Assembly: GCA_003526375.1 (NCBI GenBank)
Contig: DPDG01000050.1
Span: forward strand, 52,283-116,282
Reading direction: 5' to 3'
DNA from: Lentisphaeria bacterium
Lineage (GTDB): Bacteria; Verrucomicrobiota; Lentisphaeria; Victivallales; UBA1829
Length of the DNA: 64,000 nt
Part shown: positions 4,353-58,369 of the stretch, piece after piece
Position numbering within the stretch: the first letter of the stretch is position 1
Layout: each line of letters starts with the position of its first letter
The notes under the pieces: generated by a model
The model's database searches: none
Seen by the model: the letters and a program-made list of their open reading frames with translations, nothing else
Told to the model about the DNA's origin: nothing
Program-made: the position numbers and the translations under genes

Positions 4353-5945
4353 TTACTGCGCAGCCGGAAGCGCAAGCGTCTTTCTGATCCGGACCGCGCA
4401 CGCCGCCGTCCCGATCACCGCCGCGGTTTCATACATACTGCCGCCGACCGTCACACCGGTCACAGCGACACGCAACGGCTGATTGAGCTTGCACGCGCCC
4501 ATGCCGTTCTCCTCCTCCACTTTGCGCAAAGCCGTCTCGACTTCGGCGTCCGTCATGGAGGGGCTCTTTTCAAAAAGATCGGCAAGCATGGCAAGCGCCT
4601 TGCGCGTCGTCTCGTCCGAAAGCAGTTTACGGAATCCTTTCGGATCGTATTCCAGTTCATCCGTAAAGAAGTATCTCCACGAATTCACATCCTGATACGT
4701 TTTCGTGCGCGACTGCATCAGAGCCGCCACCTTGCGGAAAAGTTCACGATCCGCATCGGCACGCCAATCCCAGCGGGCGGCAAAATCCCAAACCTCGGAC
4801 TCGAATCTCTCAAAAGGCATCTCGGCAATATACATGCCATTCATATTCGCCAGTTTCACAAGGTCGAACTGCGCAGGAGAACGCTGGGCGCGGTCAATCG
4901 AAAAAGCCTCGATCAGCTCCTGCTTCGTCATTTTCTCGCGGTTGTCGCCGGGAGACCATCCCAGAAGCGAAAGGTAATTGAACAACGCCTCCGGCAGGAA
5001 ACCTTTCTCGCGGAAATCACCGACGAAGGCATCCCCGTCCCGCTTGCTGTACGGTTTTCCGGCGGCGTTGACCAGCATCGGCAGATGCGCATAGGACGGC
5101 GGCGTGAAACCGAGTGCCTGAAACAGGAAAAGATGACGGTAGGTGTTCTCCACATGGTCGTCGCCGCGCACAATATGCGTCACCCGCTGTGTCACGTCGT
5201 CGCAGACATTCGCAAGGTGGAATACAGGGCTTCCGTCGCTGCGGATGATGATCAGATCCTTGATTCCGTCCAGCGGCTTCGCCAGTTCGCCTTTCACAAG
5301 GTCATTGTAAAAAGCTTCGCGGCGCGTAAACTCGAAAGCGGCGGCGCCTTCGATCACTTTCGGCTCGGCAAGCCCTTCGATCTCTCTGATATTGGAGGAG
5401 TCCAGCGTGAAAATCACATTTCCGGCGGAATCGAAAACATTCAGATCCTTGAATCCGGCAAGGCCGCCGGCATTCTCAACGGTTTTGCCCTTGTGGTTGA
5501 CTGTCGACCAGATCAGTCCGGCGCGTGAAACGGAGAAAACGGAACCGGGCGCAAGCTCGGTCCTGATGCGTCCGCACTGACGGACAAACGGATAAGAGTC
5601 GCACTCATACGGCAGACGGAACAGAACCGGAGATCCGTTCTGTCCGGGGTTCAGCTCGTAGGCGTAACCTTTGGCAATCAACTCGCGCGCCGCCTCCTTG
5701 TGATGCCCGCTCTGCGAGGTCTGATACATCACTTCCCCGTCGTAGTCCAGACCGAGCCACTTCATGCATTCAAAAAGTGCATCGATCGCCTGTTTCGTGG
5801 AACGTTCGAGGTCCGTATCCTCAATGCGGAGAAGAAACTCCCCTCCGCAGTGCCGGGTGTAAAGCCAGTTGAAAATGGCGGTTCTGATGTTGCCGATGTG
5901 TACCTGCCCCGTAGGGGAAGGTGCGAATCTGGCTCTGAAATCCAT
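4353..5945 (-). CDS. gltX: Glutamyl-tRNA synthetase
   Basis: RFAPSPTGQVHIGNIRTA (HIGH region), LRIEDTDLERS and a KMSKS-like PYSKRDG. The start is trimmed from 6029 to ATG 5945 (MDFRARFAPSPTG), where class-I GluRS N-termini begin. Confidence 0.92.
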   Translation of the reverse strand: MDFRARFAPSPTGQVHIGNIRTAIFNWLYTRHCGGEFLLRIEDTDLERSTKQAIDALFECMKWLGLDYDGEVMYQTSQSGHHKEAARELIAKGYAYELNPGQNGSPVLFRLPYECDSYPFVRQCGRIRTELAPGSVFSVSRAGLIWSTVNHKGKTVENAGGLAGFKDLNVFDSAGNVIFTLDSSNIREIEGLAEPKVIEGAAAFEFTRREAFYNDLVKGELAKPLDGIKDLIIIRSDGSPVFHLANVCDDVTQRVTHIVRGDDHVENTYRHLFLFQALGFTPPSYAHLPMLVNAAGKPYSKRDGDAFVGDFREKGFLPEALFNYLSLLGWSPGDNREKMTKQELIEAFSIDRAQRSPAQFDLVKLANMNGMYIAEMPFERFESEVWDFAARWDWRADADRELFRKVAALMQSRTKTYQDVNSWRYFFTDELEYDPKGFRKLLSDETTRKALAMLADLFEKSPSMTDAEVETALRKVEEENGMGACKLNQPLRVAVTGVTVGGSMYETAAVIGTAACAVRIRKTLALPAAQ

Positions 5946-6079
5946 GATGCTGCTCCTTGAAATAAAGTATGCGCAAAAGTTGTCTGGACCTTTGCGCCGC
6001 TGAAAAATAATACAACTATAGTTTGACAATCAGGCTCCGCAGGAGTTCCCCTCCGGAGCCGTCTGCACGGTAAAAACAA

Positions 6080-7510
6080 TTAATATTCACCCGTTGCCGC
6101 GGTAAGCTGAGCTTTGGCGTTATGCATGTTGATGACATAGGTCGCCAGAGAAGTCTCGGCATTGACGAGGTCACGCTGAGCTTCATTCAAACGGGTCAGC
6201 TCGGTATTGCCGGCGCGGTATTCCTCCTCCACAAGGTCACGGATCTTCCGGTAAAGTTCCAGGCTTTTCTGTGAAATCTTGACCTGCTTCAGGCATGTCA
6301 GATAATTATCATATGCGGTTCTGACTTCGGCAACCACGGTAATCCAGGTATTTGCCAGAGAGTAGTCGCTCTGAAGCATTGCCGCCTGATAATTTCTCAT
6401 CGTGAAAAACGTCTTGCCGCCGCTGAACAGTTCCCAGGAAACATTGCCGCCGTAATTGAAGTTGAAAGACTCATACTTCTGAGTGTTGCTTCCGCCTTTA
6501 CTGCGCAGTTCAGACCCGTCGTAAGCTTTGGTGCGTGTCTGCCCCACGGTATAACCGACACTGGCATTGAAAGAAACCGTCGGGCCGAACGAACAGATCG
6601 ATCCCCAGTAATTGTATTTGGCGACTTCCAGAGCCTCGCGGTAGGCTTTGAGGTCGGGACGGTTCGCCAGCGCGGTATCAAGGTAAACGGCAAGAGTGGA
6701 AAGCACTTCTCCGTCGGGAGACGGCACTCCGGGGAACTGGATTTCTTCAGGAATCGTTCCTTCGGTCAGCCCCATCAGTTGCGCCAGAGCGTATTTGGAG
6801 GCGGCAAGCTGATACTGTGCCGCATACAAATCAGACTCTGCGGAGTTGTAATATGCCTTGAAGTTGAGCACGTCGCTCAGGGGAACCGCGCCGACTTCGA
6901 ACTTCAATTCATTTTCTTTCAACTGCGAATTCTGGAACTTCATGTTTTCCTGAGCGATCTTTATCTGGGCTTTCGCAAGAAGGATGTCATTGTAAGTATA
7001 GGCGACAGTCCTGATGAGGATACGTCTCGCATCCAGCTCCAGCGCTTCGCTCTGTTTCCAGTTGTGCCGCGCGGCAAGGAGGTTCATTTCTCTCACGAAA
7101 GAGTCGAACAGCAGCCAGTTCGCGCTGGCGCTCGGCGTATTTTCAAAGGTTCTGGAACCGTTCTGCGTGATGCCGTACACATTGTTCGGTTCATTGAAGC
7201 TCTGCTGAATCGAATAACCGGCGGTAATGGTGGGCATGTAAGGAGCAAACGCCGCATAATATGCCGCGCGCGCTCCAACAACCGCGAAATACTTCGTTTT
7301 GAAGTCGGGGTTGTTCTGGACGGCGAGGTTCTGAGCGTCTTCCAGCGTCAGAAGCTTCTGTGTAATATCCAGCTTCTGGTGTTCCGCGCCGGGAATACTT
7401 GTGAAAGCGCTTCTGGAGACCGCCACCGGCGGTTTCGGGTAAGAGGTGCACCCTGCGAGGATAACGAGCCCCGACAGAGCAAATGCTGCTGCAATCCGTT
7501 TCTTGTCCAT
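6080..7510 (-). CDS. Outer-membrane efflux protein (TolC/NodT-type lipoprotein)
   Basis: Signal peptide plus lipobox (LVILAGC). Two OEP-type repeats with typical openings LTLEDAQNLAVQNNPDFK and NRPDLKAYREALEVAKYN, and long Q/A/L-rich helices. The start is trimmed to ATG 7510 (MDKKRIAAAF). Confidence 0.85.
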   Translation of the reverse strand: MDKKRIAAAFALSGLVILAGCTSYPKPPVAVSRSAFTSIPGAEHQKLDITQKLLTLEDAQNLAVQNNPDFKTKYFAVVGARAAYYAAFAPYMPTITAGYSIQQSFNEPNNVYGITQNGSRTFENTPSASANWLLFDSFVREMNLLAARHNWKQSEALELDARRILIRTVAYTYNDILLAKAQIKIAQENMKFQNSQLKENELKFEVGAVPLSDVLNFKAYYNSAESDLYAAQYQLAASKYALAQLMGLTEGTIPEEIQFPGVPSPDGEVLSTLAVYLDTALANRPDLKAYREALEVAKYNYWGSICSFGPTVSFNASVGYTVGQTRTKAYDGSELRSKGGSNTQKYESFNFNYGGNVSWELFSGGKTFFTMRNYQAAMLQSDYSLANTWITVVAEVRTAYDNYLTCLKQVKISQKSLELYRKIRDLVEEEYRAGNTELTRLNEAQRDLVNAETSLATYVINMHNAKAQLTAATGEY

Positions 7511-17475: not shown

Positions 17476-18060
17476 ATGACAGTGTCGAAACAGTCTGACA
17501 AGAAATCTTTGCGGAGGGAAAAGCTGCTCTTGAGGAAGAGTATGGCTCCCGATGCCAGATATGCTGCCGATGCCGCCATTCTGAAAAACCTGGAGTCTCT
17601 GCCGGAATTCGCGGAGGCTCCTGTGATCGCCGCTTATGCAAGCGACGGAACCGAGCCGGATCTGATGCCGCTGCTCAGACGTGCCGCAGGAACGGGCAAA
17701 ACCATCTGCCTGCCCCGGTGGCTCAACGATTCCAATTACGAAATGGCTGTGCTCGACGGAGATTTCAAAACGGTCAGCGGCAAATGGAACATGCCGGAAC
17801 CGCCTCCTGATGCACCGCCGGCTGAAACACAACTGCTGGAACGGGCGCTCTGGCTCGTGCCGGGGGTGGCGTTCGATGAAAACTGCGCCAGACTCGGACG
17901 CGGCAAGGGGATCTATGACAGGCTCCTCGCCGGAACAAAAGGAGTGTCCGCAGGGGTCTTTTACGACTGCCAGCAGACTGCCGGGCTGCCGACCGAACCG
18001 CATGACCGTCCGCTGGACATCGTCGTGACGGAATCACAGGTCCGCCGCCGGAAACAATGA
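17476..18060 (+). CDS. ygfA: 5-formyltetrahydrofolate cyclo-ligase
   Basis: Family pattern: KKSLRREKLLLRKSM...(A)AILKNL...VIAAYASDGTEPDLMPLL...ICLPRW...WLVPGVAFDENCARLGRGKGIYDR...DRPLDIVVTE. The start is trimmed to ATG 17476 (MTVSKQ). Confidence 0.85.
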   Translation: MTVSKQSDKKSLRREKLLLRKSMAPDARYAADAAILKNLESLPEFAEAPVIAAYASDGTEPDLMPLLRRAAGTGKTICLPRWLNDSNYEMAVLDGDFKTVSGKWNMPEPPPDAPPAETQLLERALWLVPGVAFDENCARLGRGKGIYDRLLAGTKGVSAGVFYDCQQTAGLPTEPHDRPLDIVVTESQVRRRKQ

Positions 18061-18091
18061 ACAATAAAAAGATTGAGGGAAAGGAATAACG

Positions 18092-19633
18092 ATGATCTAC
18101 GGAATTGCCGCTGTGGCGGGTCTGATTATCGGTTTCATCCTCCACGTTGTATTTGTCAAAGTGGCAGGGTCGAAATCCATGAATGCCGCCAATAAATTTA
18201 AAAACGATGCCGAGCGCGAAGCGGAAAGGCTCCTCCGGGAAGCCCGTGTGACAGCCAAGAGCGACGTGCTCAAGATCAAGGAAGAATTTGAAAATGAAAT
18301 GAAGGAGCGCAGACGCGAGATCCAGTCCTCCGAACGCAGGCTCGCGCAGAAAGAGGAAAATCTCGACAGAAAAGCCGATTCTTTTGAAGCCAAAGTCAAA
18401 AACGTCGAACGCAAGGAACGTGACATCGATGCATTGAAGGAACGCCTCTCCGCCCGCGAAGACGACATGAAAAAGGCGATTGCGCGCCAGATTGACGAAC
18501 TCGAACGCATTACCGAACTTGACCGCGAAAGCGCCAAGACGCTTCTGCTGGAAAAACTCAAAGGCGAAGTCGAAAACGAGTGCGGCATCCTCATCCGCAA
18601 CATCGTCGACGAAGCCAAACAGAAAGCGGAACGCGAGTCGCAGCGTCTGCTGGTTCATGCAATCCAGCGCTATGCCGGCGAATGCACCTATGAACGCACC
18701 ACCGCCACGATTCCGCTGCCCAGCGATGAAATGAAGGGACGCATCATCGGACGCGAGGGACGCAATATCCGCGCTCTGGAAGCCGCCACGGGCGTCAACA
18801 TCCTGATCGACGATACGCCGGAAGCGGTCGTCATTTCCTGCTTTGACCCGATCCGCAAGGAAATCGCGCGCCGTCTGCTGGAAAAACTCATTTCCGACGG
18901 GCGCATTCACCCGACCCGCATTGAGGAACTCATCAAAAAGATCCGCAAGGAGATTGATGAAGAGGTCTTCGACGCCGGAGAAAAAGCGGTTCTCGACTGC
19001 GGCGTTCAGGGGGTGCCGAAACAGATCATCACCCTGCTCGGCAGACTCCAGTTCCGTTTCAGCTTCTCGCAGAACGTGCTCAAACACTCCATCGAAACCG
19101 CCGCGTTCATGGGCACCATCGCCGCGGAACTCGGGCTTGACGAACAGAAAGCGCGCAGGATCGGTCTTTTCCACGATATCGGAAAAGCCGTCGACCATGA
19201 AATCGAAGGCACCCATGCCGCAATCGGCGCGGACATTCTCCGCAAGCACAATGAAGCCAAAGACGTCATCAATGCGGTTGCAGCGCACCATGAAGAAGTG
19301 GAAGGAACCTCGATTTATGCGGTCCTTGCCAATGCCTGCGATGCTCTCAGCGCCTCGCGCCCCGGCGCCAGAAGCGAAACGACAGAGTTGTATCTCAAAC
19401 GTCTTGAACAGCTTGAAAATATCGCCAATGAGTTCACCGGCGTGGAATCCTGCTTTGCACTTCAGGCAGGCAGAGAGATCCGCGTAGTGGTTCAGCCGGA
19501 GAAGATTTCCGAGGCGCAGGCGCAGGTGCTCAGCCGCGACATCTGCGGACGGATCGAAAAAGAGATGAACTATCCGGGACAGATCAAGGTCACGGTGATC
19601 CGCGAAACCCGTTCCGTGGATTACGCGAAATAA
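18092..19633 (+). CDS. rny: Ribonuclease Y
   Basis: N-terminal TM, a long charged coiled coil, a KH domain (GRIIGREGRNIRALEAATGV) and an HD domain (RRIGLFHDIGKAVDHE). RBS GAGGGAAAGGA. Confidence 0.95.
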   Translation: MIYGIAAVAGLIIGFILHVVFVKVAGSKSMNAANKFKNDAEREAERLLREARVTAKSDVLKIKEEFENEMKERRREIQSSERRLAQKEENLDRKADSFEAKVKNVERKERDIDALKERLSAREDDMKKAIARQIDELERITELDRESAKTLLLEKLKGEVENECGILIRNIVDEAKQKAERESQRLLVHAIQRYAGECTYERTTATIPLPSDEMKGRIIGREGRNIRALEAATGVNILIDDTPEAVVISCFDPIRKEIARRLLEKLISDGRIHPTRIEELIKKIRKEIDEEVFDAGEKAVLDCGVQGVPKQIITLLGRLQFRFSFSQNVLKHSIETAAFMGTIAAELGLDEQKARRIGLFHDIGKAVDHEIEGTHAAIGADILRKHNEAKDVINAVAAHHEEVEGTSIYAVLANACDALSASRPGARSETTELYLKRLEQLENIANEFTGVESCFALQAGREIRVVVQPEKISEAQAQVLSRDICGRIEKEMNYPGQIKVTVIRETRSVDYAK

Positions 19634-23617: not shown

Positions 23618-24070
23618 TCACATTCCGAGTTTCATGTGAAGCACAGGAAACGGATTCCCCTGTCCGTCCAGTTCCGAGCGGGCATAGACCGAAAAACCGG
23701 AACGCTCATAAAATCTCCGCGCATGAGGGTTCTGTTCATTCACGTCAACACGGGAAATCTTCAACTCGTCAATCGCATAACAGATCATCCTTTTCCCGTA
23801 TCCCTGTCCCCGCCACGCGGAAGCAAGAAACAGCATTTCAAGCATCCCGCCGTCCACTCCCATGAAGCCGATGACTCCGCATTCTTTTTCATGAAAAAGA
23901 CAGAACAGTTTCGGAACAGCCTGCAAAGCCGATAAAACCATCGGTTTCAGATTCTCAATATCCTGTTCGGACAGAAATTCATGAGAAGACCTTACCGAAT
24001 CTTCCCAGACCGTCAGCAGTTCGGGAAGGAAGTTGTCCCTCGACCGTGAAATATCAGTGATCTGACTCAT
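23618..24070 (-). CDS. GNAT-family N-acetyltransferase
   Basis: Acetyl-CoA pocket WRGQGYGKRMICYAIDEL and ...ARRFYERSGF. The start overlaps the upstream tri-domain gene by 17 nt. Confidence 0.85.
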   Translation of the reverse strand: MSQITDISRSRDNFLPELLTVWEDSVRSSHEFLSEQDIENLKPMVLSALQAVPKLFCLFHEKECGVIGFMGVDGGMLEMLFLASAWRGQGYGKRMICYAIDELKISRVDVNEQNPHARRFYERSGFSVYARSELDGQGNPFPVLHMKLGM

Positions 24071-25652
24071 GCAAGCGCTCCTTTCCCCACCATTGGGGCA
24101 TTAATTCATTCAACATTACAGTATGGATATCCGGATAGGAAACAAGGATCTCGATATCACCGCTCCGTGCATCCAGTTGCATCAGCAATTCACGGCAGGC
24201 GCCGCAGGGCATTCCGGGAGAACCGTCCCCCATAAGACAGACCAGTTTCACAATCCGTCGCTCCCCGCCGGTGATCATGGATGCCACAGCATTGCGTTCC
24301 GCGCACATTCCGAGAGAACACGCCGTATCAATGCAGACTCCGGTATAGACGTTTCCGGCTTCCGTCAAAAGCGACGCCGCGACACCGCCTGCATCAATGA
24401 AAGGGGAAAGGGTCCGGGGATGAAGTTTCGCCTTCGCCGCCGTCACAAGAAAATCCCAGTCATCCTGCGTCTCCGCACAATAAATGCGCGAGGAACTTCC
24501 GAAGGGGTCCGAAGCGACGCCGAGATACCCGAACCCGTATTTTTCATAATAGCCGGTATGATCGGTGCAGAGATAAAGTTTCCGGTAGCCGAGACGCGCC
24601 GCTTCCGTTTTCACATGAGCAATCAGACGCGCACCGTAAGCATGTCCGCGGTATGCCTCCTCGATATAGAGAGCGCAGAACCACGGCCAGAGATCGCCGC
24701 GCGCAGAAAAATCGCTGATGATCAATCCCGCGCCGCCGATGATCTCCTCTTTTTCATTCAGGAGCAGATACCATTGCGGCAGTGGGGAATCCGAGTTCAG
24801 GCACGCGGTCATGCAATCCCGGTAGACCGCCTCATTGTGCCAGCGGCCGGAAAAATACCGGATAAAACGCTCCAGTTCCTGCGGCGCATCCCGCAAAGAC
24901 AAAATTCTCAAAACACATTCCTTCATGATACACTCCCTGAAAGTTTCCCAGCCGTTAAAATTCAAGGCAATATTGTCCATGCCGGACTCAAGGTCAAGCG
25001 CACACCGGATCAAACCGCGCCATCTTTCCGGCAGGTGCTTCAGTCCCCAGAATCCACCATCCCGCTTGGACAGGACTCTTCCCTCCCCCGCAAATGCTGC
25101 ATAACGGCAGAGATTCAATATTCCCGAAGCATCCCCGCCTCCCTCCGCGGCATTCCGGCGGATGCTGTCAAAAAAAGCCTCATACGGCACCTCTCCGAAT
25201 ATCCGGTCCACCGGTGCGCCGCACAATACAATACCCGTTCTCCGTACCACTTCGAAATACGCGGCAAGATCGGGATCAACGCCGTTCATCTCCGCAAGGT
25301 ATTCCTCCGGATTCTCTCTGTAACGTTCCCGGTGCATATTGGAATAATGAAGCAGAAAAGGAACCGGATGCCGGACATGGCGGCATTCCGCTTCCAGCAC
25401 GACGCTCATCTCCAGTCCTTTGGGCGGAGCGGATTCGCTGAGCCGGAGAATCAAATCCATCAGCCGCCGTTTGATCCCGTGCGGCAACTCCTCTTTCACG
25501 ACAACCAGAAAGTCGATATCGCTCTTTTCCCACCGGAAACAGCCGAATGCGACAGACCCGTGCAGATAGATTCCCGTCAGATTCTCTCCCAGCAGATGCC
25601 GGCACCCGGTTTTGATTTCCGACAGCAGGCGCGAGAGCGGACCGGCATCCAT
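24054..25652 (-). CDS. Tri-domain fusion: aminoglycoside-type nucleotidyltransferase (ANT/AadA-like + DUF4111-like) - GNAT acetyltransferase - cytidine/blasticidin-S-type deaminase
   Basis: N-terminal domain: LTGIYLHGSVAFGCFRWEKSDIDFLVVV (the GS...D.D NTase motif) plus ...NLCRYAAF...SKRDGGFWGL. Middle domain: LYIEEAYRGHAYGARLIAHV...KLYLCTDHTGYYEKYGF (GNAT). C-terminal domain: CAERNAV...PCGACRELL (CAE / PCxxC zinc-deaminase motifs). Confidence 0.8.
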   Translation of the reverse strand: MDAGPLSRLLSEIKTGCRHLLGENLTGIYLHGSVAFGCFRWEKSDIDFLVVVKEELPHGIKRRLMDLILRLSESAPPKGLEMSVVLEAECRHVRHPVPFLLHYSNMHRERYRENPEEYLAEMNGVDPDLAAYFEVVRRTGIVLCGAPVDRIFGEVPYEAFFDSIRRNAAEGGGDASGILNLCRYAAFAGEGRVLSKRDGGFWGLKHLPERWRGLIRCALDLESGMDNIALNFNGWETFRECIMKECVLRILSLRDAPQELERFIRYFSGRWHNEAVYRDCMTACLNSDSPLPQWYLLLNEKEEIIGGAGLIISDFSARGDLWPWFCALYIEEAYRGHAYGARLIAHVKTEAARLGYRKLYLCTDHTGYYEKYGFGYLGVASDPFGSSSRIYCAETQDDWDFLVTAAKAKLHPRTLSPFIDAGGVAASLLTEAGNVYTGVCIDTACSLGMCAERNAVASMITGGERRIVKLVCLMGDGSPGMPCGACRELLMQLDARSGDIEILVSYPDIHTVMLNELMPQWWGKERLHESDH

Positions 25653-25676
25653 AATAAAGAAGCCCGGCTCAGCAGG

Positions 25677-26297
25677 TCAACGCAGAGAGTTGACGAGATC
25701 CACGATCTCCTGCGGTCCGGCAACACCGATCATCATGATTTCGGTTCCGCCCGTCGCCGCCGTGCCGATCGCCACATTGCCGAGCCCGAACAGGCGCTGA
25801 AGCATTCCCTGCGACATGGAGGCGCCCCGCATGTCCTTGATCCAGATTTCATGCTGCTCCTTGGACAACCAGCCGCTCGTAATGATGATACGCCTGTTCG
25901 TTATCGTATATGAGGTTCGGCAGATCTTGATCCATACACTGACAAGAATGAAGACGCCGATCAGAAACACAGGGATCAGAATAATCCCGACAATGATGTC
26001 AGCCAGATAATTCAACGCCGCCGGATGGCATGTCTGCAAGGTCTCCTCCGGTTCATTGCTTTCAACGGCAGGAACAGCGGACGGAGCAGATGCAAATGAA
26101 GACATCTTCAGCCCTGCGCCGCAGTGCGGGCAGAACAGCGCCCGTCTGGAGATACTCGCAAAACAGTCCGGACACTCTGTCAGGTTCGGATTTTTAATTT
26201 CAAAATCATTTCCGCAGGCGGAACACGTCGTATGCCCGCCGACATACTTTGCTTCGACTTCAAAAGCCGCATTGCAGTTCGGACACTCAATTTTCAT
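25677..26297 (-). CDS. Double zinc-ribbon plus bacterial PH (bPH_2/YdbT-like) membrane protein
   Basis: MKIECPNCNAAFEV...CSACGNDFEI and CPDC...CPHCG ribbons. Two TM helices (IIVGIILIPVFLIGVFILVSVWI). A bPH-like C-terminus (SYTITNRRIIITSGWLSKEQHEIWIKDMRGASMSQGMLQRLFGLGNV). The start is trimmed to ATG 26297 with RBS AAAGGAGAGAG. Confidence 0.75.
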   Translation of the reverse strand: MKIECPNCNAAFEVEAKYVGGHTTCSACGNDFEIKNPNLTECPDCFASISRRALFCPHCGAGLKMSSFASAPSAVPAVESNEPEETLQTCHPAALNYLADIIVGIILIPVFLIGVFILVSVWIKICRTSYTITNRRIIITSGWLSKEQHEIWIKDMRGASMSQGMLQRLFGLGNVAIGTAATGGTEIMMIGVAGPQEIVDLVNSLR

Positions 26298-26449
26298 GGT
26301 ACTCTCTCCTTTTTTATCTGATATTTTCAAGCATATCACAAAAAAATCAGATATCAAACAGAATTCAGAAAACAAGCTGTTTTTTTGTAAAAAAACTCAA
26401 ACGTTCCTCCCTTTCACAAAGGGCAGGAGAACCCAGAAAACAGATTCAA

Positions 26450-55815: not shown

Positions 55816-56556
55816 ATGACTTTTTCGCAAAAACTGAACAAGACATGGATCAGGAAACTGTTTCACTGTACGGCGGCATTGTCCGGTGCCCTGTTTCTGG
55901 CATCCTGTTCGGACAATAAGCTGCCCTCCCCTCCCAAGGCGCACCCGGAGCTTCTCCTTGAGATTTATGACGCGACATCGAAAGGCGAACATAAACTCGC
56001 CCTCAAAAAGATAGAACGTCTGCGCACGATTGAAAAAACCAGTGTATTTCTTTCGGAACTTGAGTCTGTGGAACGCAATAATGCCGTCATGGAGCAGGTC
56101 AACCAATATGTAGAGACAGGGAATTTCGCCGAAGCGTTGAAATATCTTGAGGCGCAGGAAATCAGAAACGGAACACATGACGACACAACGGAAGCAAAGG
56201 AGCAGATCCGGATGCTGGCGGAAATCGACACCTTGCTGAACAAGGCGCAGACAGCCCGTTCTTCTGATGCGCTCGCAAAAACGGTCGAAGATTTGCGTAA
56301 AACAGCAAAAAAAATCATGATTTCACAGAAAATACAGAACTTTATCGACAGAAAAGAGTCTGAAATAAGAACAATGCAGACGGTGGAAAAGGACCGGATG
56401 CAGTTCGGCATGATTGCCGATATCGGTGCAATGCTGGAACAGGGAAATGCGGAAGCGGCCGTCATAGCGGCGGTGCTGGCTCTGGAGGATGAAGAAAATC
56501 CGGTTCTTCCGAAAATCCTCTCCGTCATGAGCGGCGCACAGGGCAGAGACAAGTAA
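55816..56556 (+). CDS. Hypothetical lipoprotein (helical, TPR-like)
   Basis: Signal peptide plus lipobox (GALFLASCSD). The start is trimmed to ATG 55816; the track start at 55798 is TTG. Confidence 0.7.
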   Translation: MTFSQKLNKTWIRKLFHCTAALSGALFLASCSDNKLPSPPKAHPELLLEIYDATSKGEHKLALKKIERLRTIEKTSVFLSELESVERNNAVMEQVNQYVETGNFAEALKYLEAQEIRNGTHDDTTEAKEQIRMLAEIDTLLNKAQTARSSDALAKTVEDLRKTAKKIMISQKIQNFIDRKESEIRTMQTVEKDRMQFGMIADIGAMLEQGNAEAAVIAAVLALEDEENPVLPKILSVMSGAQGRDK

Positions 56557-56601
56557 AAATTTTCATGAAAAGTATTCAACAATAAGAAAGGGATTCAATC
56601 C

Positions 56602-57720
56602 ATGATGAGAAGATCAAAATTCATCCGCTCGGCGGCAGTGACCACTGTCTCCGCCTTCGTGCTGGCAGCTTCCGCCACGGCGTGCGGACAGGAAAAACCG
56701 GCAGATGCAAAAACAGCCAAGCCTGAAGCAAAGGCCGCCGCACCCGCCAAGCCCGCCCCCAAGACTCTGGACGAGGTATTCGTCTTCCTGCCGGATCCGG
56801 TTGCCACAGTCGGCAATAAAAAGATTTCCAAAAAGGAATTTCTTGACCAGCTCGGCAAAGTGCCGGTGGAATACATTGCCCAGTTGACGCCCGACATGCT
56901 CAAGACACAGGCGAAACAGATGGTCAACAGCCTTGTCGATATGGAAGTTCTTTTGGCTCTCGCGGAAAAATCCGGCGTCAAGCCCACCAAGGAACTTGTC
57001 ATTGCGGAATTCGACAAGAAACTCAAGGAAATGCCCAAAGAGCAGCTCGACATGATCACGAAACAGCTTGAACTTCAGGGCAAGAAACTTGACGACATCA
57101 AGGCGGAAGCCGTCAAAGACCCGAATACGTTCAAGTTTTATGCGATCAACAAATGGGTGGAAGACAATCTGAAATCCAAAGTCAAAGTCACGGATGCCGA
57201 CATCGAGAAATACTACAAGGAACATCAGGATCAGTTCAAGAAGCCGGAAACCCTTACCGCGTCCCACATTCTGATCTCCACGATGCCCGCAGACGGCAAA
57301 CCCGGCGCGGCGGTTGATCCAGCCAAGGACAAAGAAGCCAAAGCAAAGGCGGAGAAGATTCTTGCCGATCTCAAGAAAGGCGCGGATTTCGGCGCAATCG
57401 CGGAAAAAGAGAGCGCCTGCCCCAGCGGAAAACAGGCGAAAGGCAAGCTTCCTCCGTTCACAAAGGGACAGATGGTTCCCGAGTTTGAAAAGGCGGCGAT
57501 GGCTCTCAAGCCCGGACAGCTTTCCGAAGTCGTCAAGACTCCGTTCGGCTACCATATCATCAAGCTGGAAGCCAAGAATCCGGCAAGCGTGATGCCGCTC
57601 GCACAGGTCAAAGAGGCGATCAAAGCCAACCTCGAAGCCAAAGCTCTCGAAAAACAGTTGACCGAGACTCTGACCAAGCAGAAAACCAATATGAATGTCA
57701 AGATCAACGATTTCAAATAA
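56602..57720 (+). CDS. Peptidyl-prolyl cis-trans isomerase, parvulin type (PrsA/SurA-like)
   Basis: Signal peptide, a chaperone-like N-terminal domain, and a parvulin core: TASHILIS...GADFGAIAEKESACPS...GQMVPEFEKAA...VVKTPFGYHIIKLE. Confidence 0.88.
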   Translation: MMRRSKFIRSAAVTTVSAFVLAASATACGQEKPADAKTAKPEAKAAAPAKPAPKTLDEVFVFLPDPVATVGNKKISKKEFLDQLGKVPVEYIAQLTPDMLKTQAKQMVNSLVDMEVLLALAEKSGVKPTKELVIAEFDKKLKEMPKEQLDMITKQLELQGKKLDDIKAEAVKDPNTFKFYAINKWVEDNLKSKVKVTDADIEKYYKEHQDQFKKPETLTASHILISTMPADGKPGAAVDPAKDKEAKAKAEKILADLKKGADFGAIAEKESACPSGKQAKGKLPPFTKGQMVPEFEKAAMALKPGQLSEVVKTPFGYHIIKLEAKNPASVMPLAQVKEAIKANLEAKALEKQLTETLTKQKTNMNVKINDFK

Positions 57721-57748
57721 TCGACGGTCGCAGAAGCAATCAGCAAAA

Positions 57749-57782
57749 GGCTTGCCTCCCTCCGGAAGCAAGCCTTTTTTCT
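57749..57782 (+). terminator. Intrinsic terminator after the PPIase gene
   Basis: GGCTTGC (57749-57755), 12-nt loop, GCAAGCC (57768-57774), then TTTTTTCTT. Confidence 0.75.
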
Positions 57783-57805
57783 TAAAGAAAGGGAGGGGAA
57801 ACAGA

Positions 57806-58369
57806 ATGGAAATCCAATCACTGCTCAAACTCATCGGAAAGCGCCAGAGCTGCCGCGCCTACGTTCCGGGAAAAGAAATCCCCGGAGAACTCATGCGGAA
57901 CTGTCTGGAAGCCGCCAGACTCGCGCCGTCCTCCTGCAATAAACAGCCGTGGCGTTTCGTGATAGTCAGGGAGAGAGAGATGATCCGGCGCATTGCCGGG
58001 GAAGGGCTTCTGCCCGGCATAAAAATGACGTGGCTCAACGACGCCTCCGCAATTGCGGTGCTGTGCGCCAAAACCGACGTCAAAGTACACTGGCTCGCTC
58101 CGATTCTTTCAGGAATCCAGTATCATCTGGTCGATCTTGGCATCGCCGGAGAACATTTCTGCCTCGCGGCGGAAGCGCAGGGGCTCGGTACCTGCTGGAT
58201 CGGATGGTTCAAACCGAAAGCCGTGGCGCAGATGCTCGGAATTCCGTCGGGAATCCAGCCGACAGCTCTGATCTCCGTCGGTTATCCGCAGGAAAGGCAT
58301 GATCCTGTTCCGCGTCTTCCGCTGGAAGAAATCGCCTGCGCCGACAGGTGGGGCAAACCAATTCAATAA
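57806..58369 (+). CDS. Nitroreductase-family protein
   Basis: RQSCRAY...LEAARLAPSSCNKQPWRFVIV and ...GLGTCWIG.. The start is trimmed to ATG 57806 with RBS AAGGGAGGGG. Confidence 0.85.
   Translation: MEIQSLLKLIGKRQSCRAYVPGKEIPGELMRNCLEAARLAPSSCNKQPWRFVIVREREMIRRIAGEGLLPGIKMTWLNDASAIAVLCAKTDVKVHWLAPILSGIQYHLVDLGIAGEHFCLAAEAQGLGTCWIGWFKPKAVAQMLGIPSGIQPTALISVGYPQERHDPVPRLPLEEIACADRWGKPIQ

Follow-up and report, generated by a model that had tools for sequence, protein, structure and literature searches.

What does a bacterium do with a single polypeptide that appears to hold three small-molecule-modifying enzymes? The question is raised by a 64,000-nucleotide stretch of a Lentisphaeria bacterium genome (GenBank assembly GCA_003526375.1, contig DPDG01000050.1, positions 52,283 to 116,282 of the forward strand), called the window here, which carries a 532-codon open reading frame (ORF) that we call the fusion. 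An original prediction, made from the letters of the DNA, described one unbroken ORF, and the ORF list agrees, placing it on the minus strand (Table 1). In it, an aminoglycoside nucleotidyltransferase (ANT)-like domain, a GNAT acetyltransferase domain, and a cytidine/blasticidin-type deaminase domain follow one another. Our tentative answer is that the fusion mounts separate enzyme activities, each modifying or detoxifying small molecules, on a tetrameric deaminase scaffold. It most likely serves to modify or detoxify xenobiotics or antibiotic-like compounds, and its substrates would not be those of AadA, canonical Cdd, or blasticidin-S deaminase.

The three domain assignments prove correct by Pfam, NCBIfam, Protein Data Bank (PDB), AlphaFold2, and Foldseek comparisons. 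Specifically, Pfam matches NTP_transf_2 at residues 11-70 (4e-5), AadA_C at residues 151-224 (2.4e-12), and Acetyltransf_1 at residues 265-374 (2.7e-10); Acetyltransf_7 and Acetyltransf_10 match too. The dCMP_cyt_deam_1 family (PF00383) matches residues 423-495 at 3.9e-4 and 20.7 bits, short of the 25 bits set as its gathering score. This domain also matches the NCBIfam cytidine deaminase model PRK05578 at 3.7e-17, below cut-off, and its best PDB match among cytidine deaminase (CDA) chains is the B. anthracis CDA 2d30 (5.5e-13). The GNAT domain matches PDB 9y12_A at 1.9e-47. The AlphaFold2 monomer model, made from a 33-sequence alignment, has a mean predicted local distance difference test (pLDDT) score of 88.4 and contains three compact domains (approximately residues 1-245, 249-394, and 398-530); the junction between GNAT and deaminase is very short and modeled with confidence. 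Foldseek pairs the N-terminal part with ANT(9), ANT(3'')(9), and AadA (6xz0, 7uy4, and 6fzb; target template-modeling (TM) scores 0.72-0.80 over about 254 columns) and the middle part with GNAT 9y12 (TM 0.91, 52% identity). The C-terminal part matches tetrameric cytidine deaminases and blasticidin-S deaminases (BSDs) about equally, at TM ~0.8. Domain searches, which the original prediction had proposed as a check, thus support all three domains, and the boundaries that it drew are accurate within about 10 residues.

Each domain looks catalytically competent but falls outside the characterized family, drug-modifying or housekeeping, that it resembles. The nucleotidyltransferase (NTase) domain, whose IYLHGSVAFGCFRWEKSDIDFLVVV motif spans residues 28-52, was aligned with AadA and ANT(3'')(9) chains (7uy4, 4cs6, and 5g4a). 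It keeps G32-S33, D45-x-D47, and E81, which align with AadA G35-S36, D47, D49, and E87, and it shares the two-lobed Pol-beta plus AadA_C fold of AadA, ANT(3'')(9), and ANT(9). We take E87 to be the catalytic base of AadA, and W112, W173, D178, D182, and H185 to be its aminoglycoside contacts. By that assignment, D174, the equivalent of D182, is the sole aminoglycoside-contact residue kept. Stand-alone relatives of the NTase, 40-54% identical, lie in a large uncharacterized clade of AadA_C (PF13427)-containing proteins. In the GNAT domain, the motif EEAYRGHAYGARLIAHV spans residues 331-347, and the acetyl-CoA pyrophosphate-binding loop reads R-G-H-A-Y-G, a variant of R/Q-x-x-G-x-G/A. PDB 9y12, a structural-genomics entry from Bacteroides fragilis released on 2025-09-10, belongs to the same GNAT family and covers residues 248-394; unlike the domain studied here, it is a stand-alone protein of 154 residues. 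Our literature search for 9y12 found no function or paper. GNATs of this type, about 50% identical, also occur as stand-alone genes on many Firmicutes plasmids (Paraclostridium sordellii, Priestia megaterium, and others; records H2-H12), where they are annotated merely as "GNAT family N-acetyltransferase."

The deaminase keeps the zinc and catalytic site, C450-A-E452-R453 and P482-C483-G-A-C486-R-E (within CAERNAV at 450-456 and PCGACRELL at 482-490), and has two further landmarks, C440-I-D-T and W521-W-G. It resembles the homotetrameric CDAs (B. subtilis Cdd, 1jtk; metagenomic CDA_F14, 7zob, PMC9897663) in size and fold (TM ~0.8), and it shares with them the three cysteine zinc ligands, the catalytic glutamate, the compensating arginine, the PCxxC motif, and an aromatic residue in an L-x-P-x-(F/W) tail. 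It differs in that N-I-E-N is replaced by C-I-D-T and CRQ by CRE, and in that the module is usually fused and scores under the Cdd equivalog cut-offs. With the Aspergillus terreus BSD (1wn5), it shares the fold, the zinc site, the loss of the canonical NxEN, and an aromatic tail (GYVWEG in BSD versus xWWG), but the two are only 24% identical, and the best PDB match to a BSD is 9e-6 versus 5e-13 for CDA. The BSD sequence in our alignment is identical to that of PDB 1wn5. Judged by its residues, the module is an uncharacterized deaminase subfamily in which the catalytic center appears intact and the substrate pocket altered.

The fusion is a real, conserved, expressed-looking chromosomal gene. 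An exact or near-identical 532-residue product appears on many independent contigs (ENA, Logan, and NCBI assemblies), and intact orthologues occur at 99.6% (L089), 94% (L090), 86% (L008), and 84% identity (L001-L003). Nonsynonymous-to-synonymous rate ratios (dN/dS) were calculated by the Nei-Gojobori method against two orthologues: the NTase core has values of 0.15-0.22, the GNAT 0.19-0.20, and the deaminase 0.14. The AadA_C lobe is the least constrained part (0.21-0.46), and the whole-gene value is 0.22 against the 84% orthologue. With values of 0.14-0.46 across the domains, every part is under purifying selection. Compared with L008, CarB is 98.6% identical, GlmS 96%, and the fusion 86%. Thus, the fusion evolves much faster than its housekeeping neighbors, the typical pattern of an accessory gene. 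The gene is confined to one narrow clade of the Victivallales/Lentisphaeria, and the majority of related sequences derive from gut samples.

An artifact or a decaying gene, i.e., a mis-assembled, frameshift-masked, or read-through fusion with no selected function, has a negligible probability given these data. A few observations could be read that way: the annotated start has no obvious Shine-Dalgarno (SD) sequence, one contig (P0004) carries a chimeric junction, the NTase core is gone from a related lineage in which PCGACRE has also changed to LCGACCE, and in one Victivallales metagenome-assembled genome (MAG), P0121 (NCBI MEI3004767.1) is called as a 342-residue protein with a frameshift inside the GNAT domain. 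The ORF is nevertheless intact in four diverged lineages and in dozens of assemblies, dN/dS is well below 1 for each domain, and the NTase and deaminase catalytic residues are kept. Intact ORFs across so many assemblies and diverged lineages effectively exclude a read-level artifact, and with it the assembly error against which the original prediction had cautioned. The frameshift in P0121 may itself reflect misassembly or a pseudogene at the strain level. Locus L090, listed with a 130-residue product only and at first a candidate for a gene-less locus, translates to an intact 532-codon ORF (the 94% orthologue). The 206-residue cluster members P0123 and P0133 are not fusion variants and correspond to the neighboring Zn-ribbon/bPH gene. 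A 596-codon antisense ORF (24123-25913, plus strand) lacks a Pfam match and is arginine-rich, and hence is a shadow ORF.

How unusual is the arrangement? The three-way architecture had seemed unfamiliar when first noticed, and the databases bear this out. None of 6176 matches from an exhaustive HMMER search of 1.84 billion cluster representatives covers all three domains; elsewhere, copies at least 84% identical to the fusion are the only examples. A three-domain relative at as little as 35-40% identity would top the HMMER list. A word-indexed search of 5.8 billion clusters returns full-length matches at 99% and 84% alone, and a scan of 185,579 species genomes yields a single further three-domain case, L008. 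Among 306 retrieved relatives, 22 proteins have the NTase-GNAT-deaminase order, and all belong to the group with at least 78% identity. Thus, the architecture search that had been recommended finds the same order in close relatives alone. Within the databases covered, this order of three domains is novel; its folds are known, and the evolutionary process is common.

Where did the fusion come from? The C-terminal ~290 residues (GNAT plus CDA-like deaminase) are an older two-domain unit found alone in other lineages. Stand-alone GNAT-deaminase proteins of 281-293 residues (P0005, P0163, and P0164; 49-63% identity) start at the position of fusion residue Met243 (context MKECVLRIL), as does a 284-residue, 60% identical, nonsyntenic protein of another Victivallales genome (L007). 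From these starts, the NTase looks like an N-terminal addition seen in this clade alone. We propose that an ANT(9)/AadA-like gene was joined to the 5' end of a GNAT-deaminase gene in this clade, the simplest route being that a stop codon was lost, and that Met243 and an SD-like motif would be the old start left behind. The motif, AGGGAG, lies 6 nucleotides before the Met243 codon in the window, L001, and L008, and is lost in L004. The same letters double as the codons for F-R-E, so their conservation is ambiguous. The host does employ SD sites (AAGGAG precedes the downstream GNAT gene), and the annotated fusion start has none. AGGGAG and Met243 possibly form an internal start, vestigial or still active, that would yield a protein of GNAT and deaminase alone. 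Positions 24969-24997 carry a sigma-70-like match, of a kind that is frequent by chance.

A shorter, 78%-identical copy (L004:6001-7221, L005:2535-3755, and L006:529-1749; 299 cluster members) begins at query residue 160. Its NTase core is gone, and its GNAT-deaminase portion is retained under constraint. With a dN/dS of 0.35 for the AadA_C remnant versus 0.18-0.22 for the GNAT and deaminase, relaxed selection on the remnant is a trend only. Its start has been called either at a spurious upstream methionine (406 residues) or at the Met243 equivalent (291 residues). The LCGACCE change noted above belongs to this copy, which is flanked by GH42 genes in L004 and by an ISL3 transposase in L005. 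The 406-residue P0003 was rejected as an NTase-GNAT protein, as it starts at query residue 160 and contains no NTase core.

These relatives bear on the notion, offered in the original prediction as an alternative, that the fusion is an assembly line that nucleotidylates, acetylates, and deaminates one nucleoside-like substrate in succession. The GNAT-deaminase pair does recur in several lineages at 38-63% identity, and in L014 the two are adjacent ORFs in the same frame. This recurrent pairing suggests functional coupling of those two domains, and the short, confidently modeled junction between them fits as well. However, GNAT-deaminase relatives outside the clade all lack the NTase, as does the 78% copy. 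Among the 80 module loci that we examined (the best 80), none of the other module genes has an ANT-like gene within 5 kb, and each domain family is fused to many unrelated partners. An NTase that relatives can dispense with makes a single-substrate pathway unlikely, and we accord successive steps on one substrate only a slight chance.

The deaminase module has a far wider distribution than the fusion. Its signature, SPFxxAGGVxAAxLT...GVCIDTACSLGMCAERNA...PCGACRE...LxPxWWG, extends over ~135 residues, and a pattern scan finds it in at least 564 species-level genomes. The hosts are mainly gut Clostridia, with further examples in Bacilli, Spirochaetes, Lentisphaeria, Verrucomicrobiota, Desulfovibrio, and Bacteroidales. 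The module is 50-65% identical across highly divergent hosts and partners, and its patchy cross-phylum distribution suggests horizontal spread. Among 190 nonredundant modules, CAER is conserved in 189, PCxxCRE in 186, and the exact CIDT in 163, the remainder being mostly single-residue variants. The 80 loci divide into 42 stand-alone genes (~130-150 residues) and 38 fusions, and no gene neighborhood is conserved overall around them. One stand-alone module bears the RefSeq name "cytidine deaminase." Two stand-alone modules come from cultured bacteria, Ruthenibacterium lactatiformans 585-1 (L012:5052-5450, with a CatA-like gene at 5531-6259, 81 nucleotides downstream) and Enterococcus asini ATCC 700915 (L077:4998-5399).

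Fusion partners are diverse. In 37 scanned fusions, the partner is GrpB in 24, GNAT in 4, ASCH in 2, and MurC, a glyoxalase/bleomycin-resistance fold, and ANT in 1 each; the ANT case is the orthologue L008. NUDIX and Acetyltransf_3 are further partners. The GrpB-deaminase proteins of gut Clostridia (for example, P0041, P0077, and L013), which represent the commonest module architecture, carry the same module (57-66% identity), likewise C-terminal, behind a partner that also has a nucleotidyltransferase fold. They differ in possessing GrpB in place of ANT plus GNAT, giving two-domain proteins of ~300 residues. Neither the literature on the function of GrpB nor that on blasticidin deaminases from metagenomes offered anything usable. 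In L040 (1681-2601, plus strand), a GrpB-deaminase gene has an in-frame TGA at the first tryptophan of the WWG tail (LIPE*WG), for which reading of TGA as tryptophan, sequencing error, and pseudogene formation are all possible. In an uncultured Faecalibacterium MAG (L019:3453-5393, plus strand; P0063), a full-length MurC-type Mur ligase (611-647 residues) carries the module at its C-terminal end, a strange pairing for an accessory enzyme.

Small sets of neighbors, namely an ABC ATPase, GNATs, Vat, and CatA, recur beside module genes. Vat-family neighbors pass their curated cut-off in L052, L028, and L029, in the last case with Vat fused to GrpB. A CatA neighbor passes in L063, and that of L012 scores 269.9 against a cut-off of 270; AAC(6')-like GNATs adjoining module genes in L075 and L061 fall below cut-off. 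These resistance-family genes are diverged and differently arranged, which implies several independent events. The L029 ORF (1302-2480, plus strand) encodes 392 residues, with a GrpB-like part at residues 5-173 and a Vat-family streptogramin A acetyltransferase (307 versus a cut-off of 300), and lies 246 nucleotides downstream of a GNAT-like-deaminase gene. GrpB thus partners both the deaminase module and a resistance-family enzyme.

How might the fusion work? We envision that the NTase would adenylylate or otherwise nucleotidylate small molecules using NTP and Mg2+, that the GNAT domain would N-acetylate small molecules in an acetyl-CoA-dependent manner, and that the deaminase would carry out zinc-dependent hydrolytic deamination of a cytosine-like ring. 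The three would be independent catalysts with no obligate pathway. In tetrameric CDAs, three subunits contribute to each active site, and the C-terminal phenylalanine of another subunit lines the pocket (PMC9897663). By analogy with CDA and BSD, the C-terminal module is probably homotetrameric and would scaffold four copies of the N-terminal enzymes. In 68 fusions versus 2, the module occupies the C-terminus, and sizeable C-terminal extensions occur in about 6 of 190 modules. A need for a free tail in the neighbor's active site would, we infer, explain why the module is nearly always C-terminal; the conserved WWG tail and this placement are consistent with the predicted homotetramer. A detoxification flavor comes from the Vat, CatA, and AAC(6')-like neighbors, the glyoxalase/bleomycin-resistance-fold partner, and the ANT-APH fusions found among relatives of the ANT-like domain. 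General detoxification, the broader half of the multi-activity small-molecule detoxification role first proposed for this ORF, remains the best guess, helped by module relatives beside Vat and CatA; its narrower half, the link to classical drug enzymes, is not supported, and a resistance role is plausible at most.

A number of findings weigh against detoxification by independent domains on a tetrameric scaffold. In the NTase, AadA W112 is replaced by R or M, a deletion has removed W173, and the places of D178 and H185 are taken by E170 and G177; identity to AadA and ANT(9) is just 21-24%, and NCBIfam scores are far under their cut-offs (ANT_9, 69.3 against 340; PRK13746, 64.9 against 193; ANT_3pp_I (AadA), 48.6 against 375). 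No NCBIfam AAC model matches residues 243-396 at E<=0.01, the best match there being ArsN2 (23.8 against 125). In tetrameric CDAs, N42, E44, and Y48 bind the ribose and F/Y24 stacks on the base (PMC9897663). The F/Y24, N42, E44, and Y48 positions are G, C, D, and C in the fusion, the change at Y48 accompanying a one-residue deletion, and the CDA models PRK05578 and TIGR01354 score 62.6 against 74 and 57.4 against 113.65. For BSD, we take the substrate residues to be R90 in PCGRC, the NVYH region, and the Y126/W128 tail; R90 is alanine here, NVYH is CIDT, and the aromatic C-terminal tail alone is analogous. With cut-offs missed and substrate contacts unconserved, "antibiotic" is a guess from family flavor. 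Moreover, resistance genes adjoin only about 7 of the 80 module loci, the window gene not among them, and the partners MurC, HPr, HAD, MGMT, ASCH, and NUDIX are off the resistance theme. The fusion's neighbors are the housekeeping genes carB and glmS, the locus is chromosomal and syntenic with no mobile elements in the window, and plasmid and phage records contain no copy of the fusion. A pre-fusion pair of ANT and GNAT-deaminase genes is absent from the 80 module loci, from L007, and from loci with distant orthologues of the downstream GNAT. Finally, tetramerization and domain independence are what we infer. With a predicted TM score (pTM) of 0.60, the model gives no reliable inter-domain geometry, so the relative placement of the domains is uncertain.

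The same substitutions, missed cut-offs, and nonmobile locus tell against a triple classical resistance enzyme, in which a streptomycin/spectinomycin adenylyltransferase, an aminoglycoside acetyltransferase, and a blasticidin-S deaminase would be joined, and they leave unsupported the tie to classical drug-inactivating enzymes that the original prediction had drawn. We regard such an enzyme as very unlikely, the closest GNAT also being the uncharacterized B. fragilis protein. What speaks for it is that the best characterized relatives are ANT(9)/AadA and CDA/BSD, that equivalents of E87 and D182 are present, and that bifunctional resistance fusions exist, as had been pointed out. The precedent, and the nearest described system, is ANT(3'')-Ii/AAC(6')-IId of Serratia marcescens, which likewise places an N-terminal AadA-type domain and a C-terminal GNAT in one polypeptide and whose two domains act independently (PMC6017855). 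It differs in being integron-borne, with both halves validated, whereas the Victivallales fusion is chromosomal, syntenic, and below curated cut-offs; it also lacks a deaminase, and the GNAT of the fusion comes from another (9y12-like) family. More generally, mobile bifunctional fusions (AAC(6')-Ie/APH(2'')-Ia and ANT(3'')-Ii/AAC(6')-IId) are carried by plasmids, integrons, or transposons and have validated halves; the Victivallales fusion shares neither property.

Could the fusion instead serve to salvage nucleosides, modified ones included, or to repair metabolites? The module would convert cytidine-like nucleosides, possibly N4- or ribose-modified, into uridine analogues, and the GNAT and NTase would have related metabolites as substrates, whether nucleosides, nucleotides, or amino sugars. 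We hold this to be unlikely, though several points favor it. The three domain families have nucleoside- or nucleotide-enzyme partners (ASCH in 2 of 37, NUDIX, PNP_UDP, CTP_transf_like, DUF523 (PF04463), and pseudouridine synthase); YqfB, an ASCH protein of E. coli, acts as an N4-acetylcytidine amidohydrolase (PMC6972931), and tetrameric CDAs are capable of great promiscuity at the N4 position (PMC9897663). The RefSeq name "cytidine deaminase" and the chromosomal housekeeping context point the same way. On the other hand, almost every one of the 190 modules has C, C, and G at the positions of N42, Y48, and F24, the Cdd cut-offs are missed, and adjacency to Vat and CatA is left unexplained. Furthermore, a GNAT acetylates rather than deacetylates, so that no known salvage step fits it.

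We also entertain a bolder idea, one that we rate as distinctly doubtful: the module is a previously unrecognized family of antibiotic- or xenobiotic-inactivating deaminases, spread horizontally among hundreds of species of gut bacteria and repeatedly welded to GrpB, GNATs, and ANT. Its targets could be cytosine-containing peptidyl-nucleoside antibiotics of the ribosomal peptidyl-transferase center, the site also of streptogramin A and chloramphenicol. If so, the Victivallales protein would be the first three-activity resistance enzyme in a single chain.

The immediate surroundings of the fusion are stable. In all orthologous loci, the slot order is carB, the Zn-ribbon/bPH_2 membrane protein, the fusion, the small GNAT, and a convergent glmS. 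The downstream GNAT matches NCBIfam PRK10514 at 5e-31 and 107.6 bits, against a cut-off of 134. Its own AAGGAG lies within the 3' end of the fusion gene, an arrangement kept in all orthologous loci, and the two genes are likely co-transcribed and translationally coupled. The locus thereby has two different GNATs in tandem. Upstream, the bPH_2 gene ends 24 nucleotides before the fusion start and is syntenic in L001-3, L008, and L089. Its true start is probably the methionine of MKIECPNC, giving 206 residues, and the protein shares only 74% identity with its orthologue in L008, against 98.6% for CarB alongside. Plasmid contexts of the single domains were uninformative. A role in anti-phage defense was considered and rejected, since the sole match among PADLOC defense models is the weak, generic minimal-NTase model PDC-S09 (31.7 bits, residues 5-70). 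Elsewhere in the window, AT skew is strongly positive at 18001-19000 (0.28) and 56001-58000 (0.26-0.33) relative to the remainder.

Table 1. The fusion, its parts, and its adjoining genes in window coordinates
Feature	Position	Strand	Basis
NTase-GNAT-deaminase fusion ORF, 532 codons (stop codon 24054-24056)	24054-25652	-	ORF list
Residues 1-150, Pol-beta-type nucleotidyltransferase core	25203-25652	-	Pfam NTP_transf_2, Polbeta; PDB alignments
Residues 151-242, AadA_C helical lobe and linker helix	24927-25202	-	Pfam, PDB, Foldseek
Residues 243-396, GNAT domain, 9y12-like family	24465-24926	-	PDB, Pfam, Foldseek
Residues 397-532, tetrameric-CDA/BSD-like zinc deaminase module	24057-24464	-	NCBIfam, PDB, alignment
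SD-like AGGGAG (24933-24938) and Met243 codon (24924-24926)	24924-24938	-	Sequence
Downstream 150-residue GNAT, PRK10514-like, 17-nucleotide overlap with fusion ORF	23618-24070	-	ORF list, NCBIfam
Upstream double zinc-ribbon and bPH_2 membrane protein	25677-26375	-	Pfam bPH_2 2.2e-16 and zinc ribbons

Resistance fusions with two activities already pose a recognized problem in the clinic, and a natural three-activity chain would extend the principle. If the substrates of the domains are instead ordinary and unrelated, the fusion is one more of the frequent neutral fusions among small accessory enzymes. The widespread deaminase module, with its network of fusions, is a more testable lead than the fusion itself, and the cultured carriers R. 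lactatiformans 585-1 and E. asini ATCC 700915 represent practical experimental starting points. Cytidine deaminases of gut and tumor bacteria inactivate nucleoside drugs, for example gemcitabine. The substrate of the module could therefore matter both for microbiome drug metabolism and for the annotation of resistomes.

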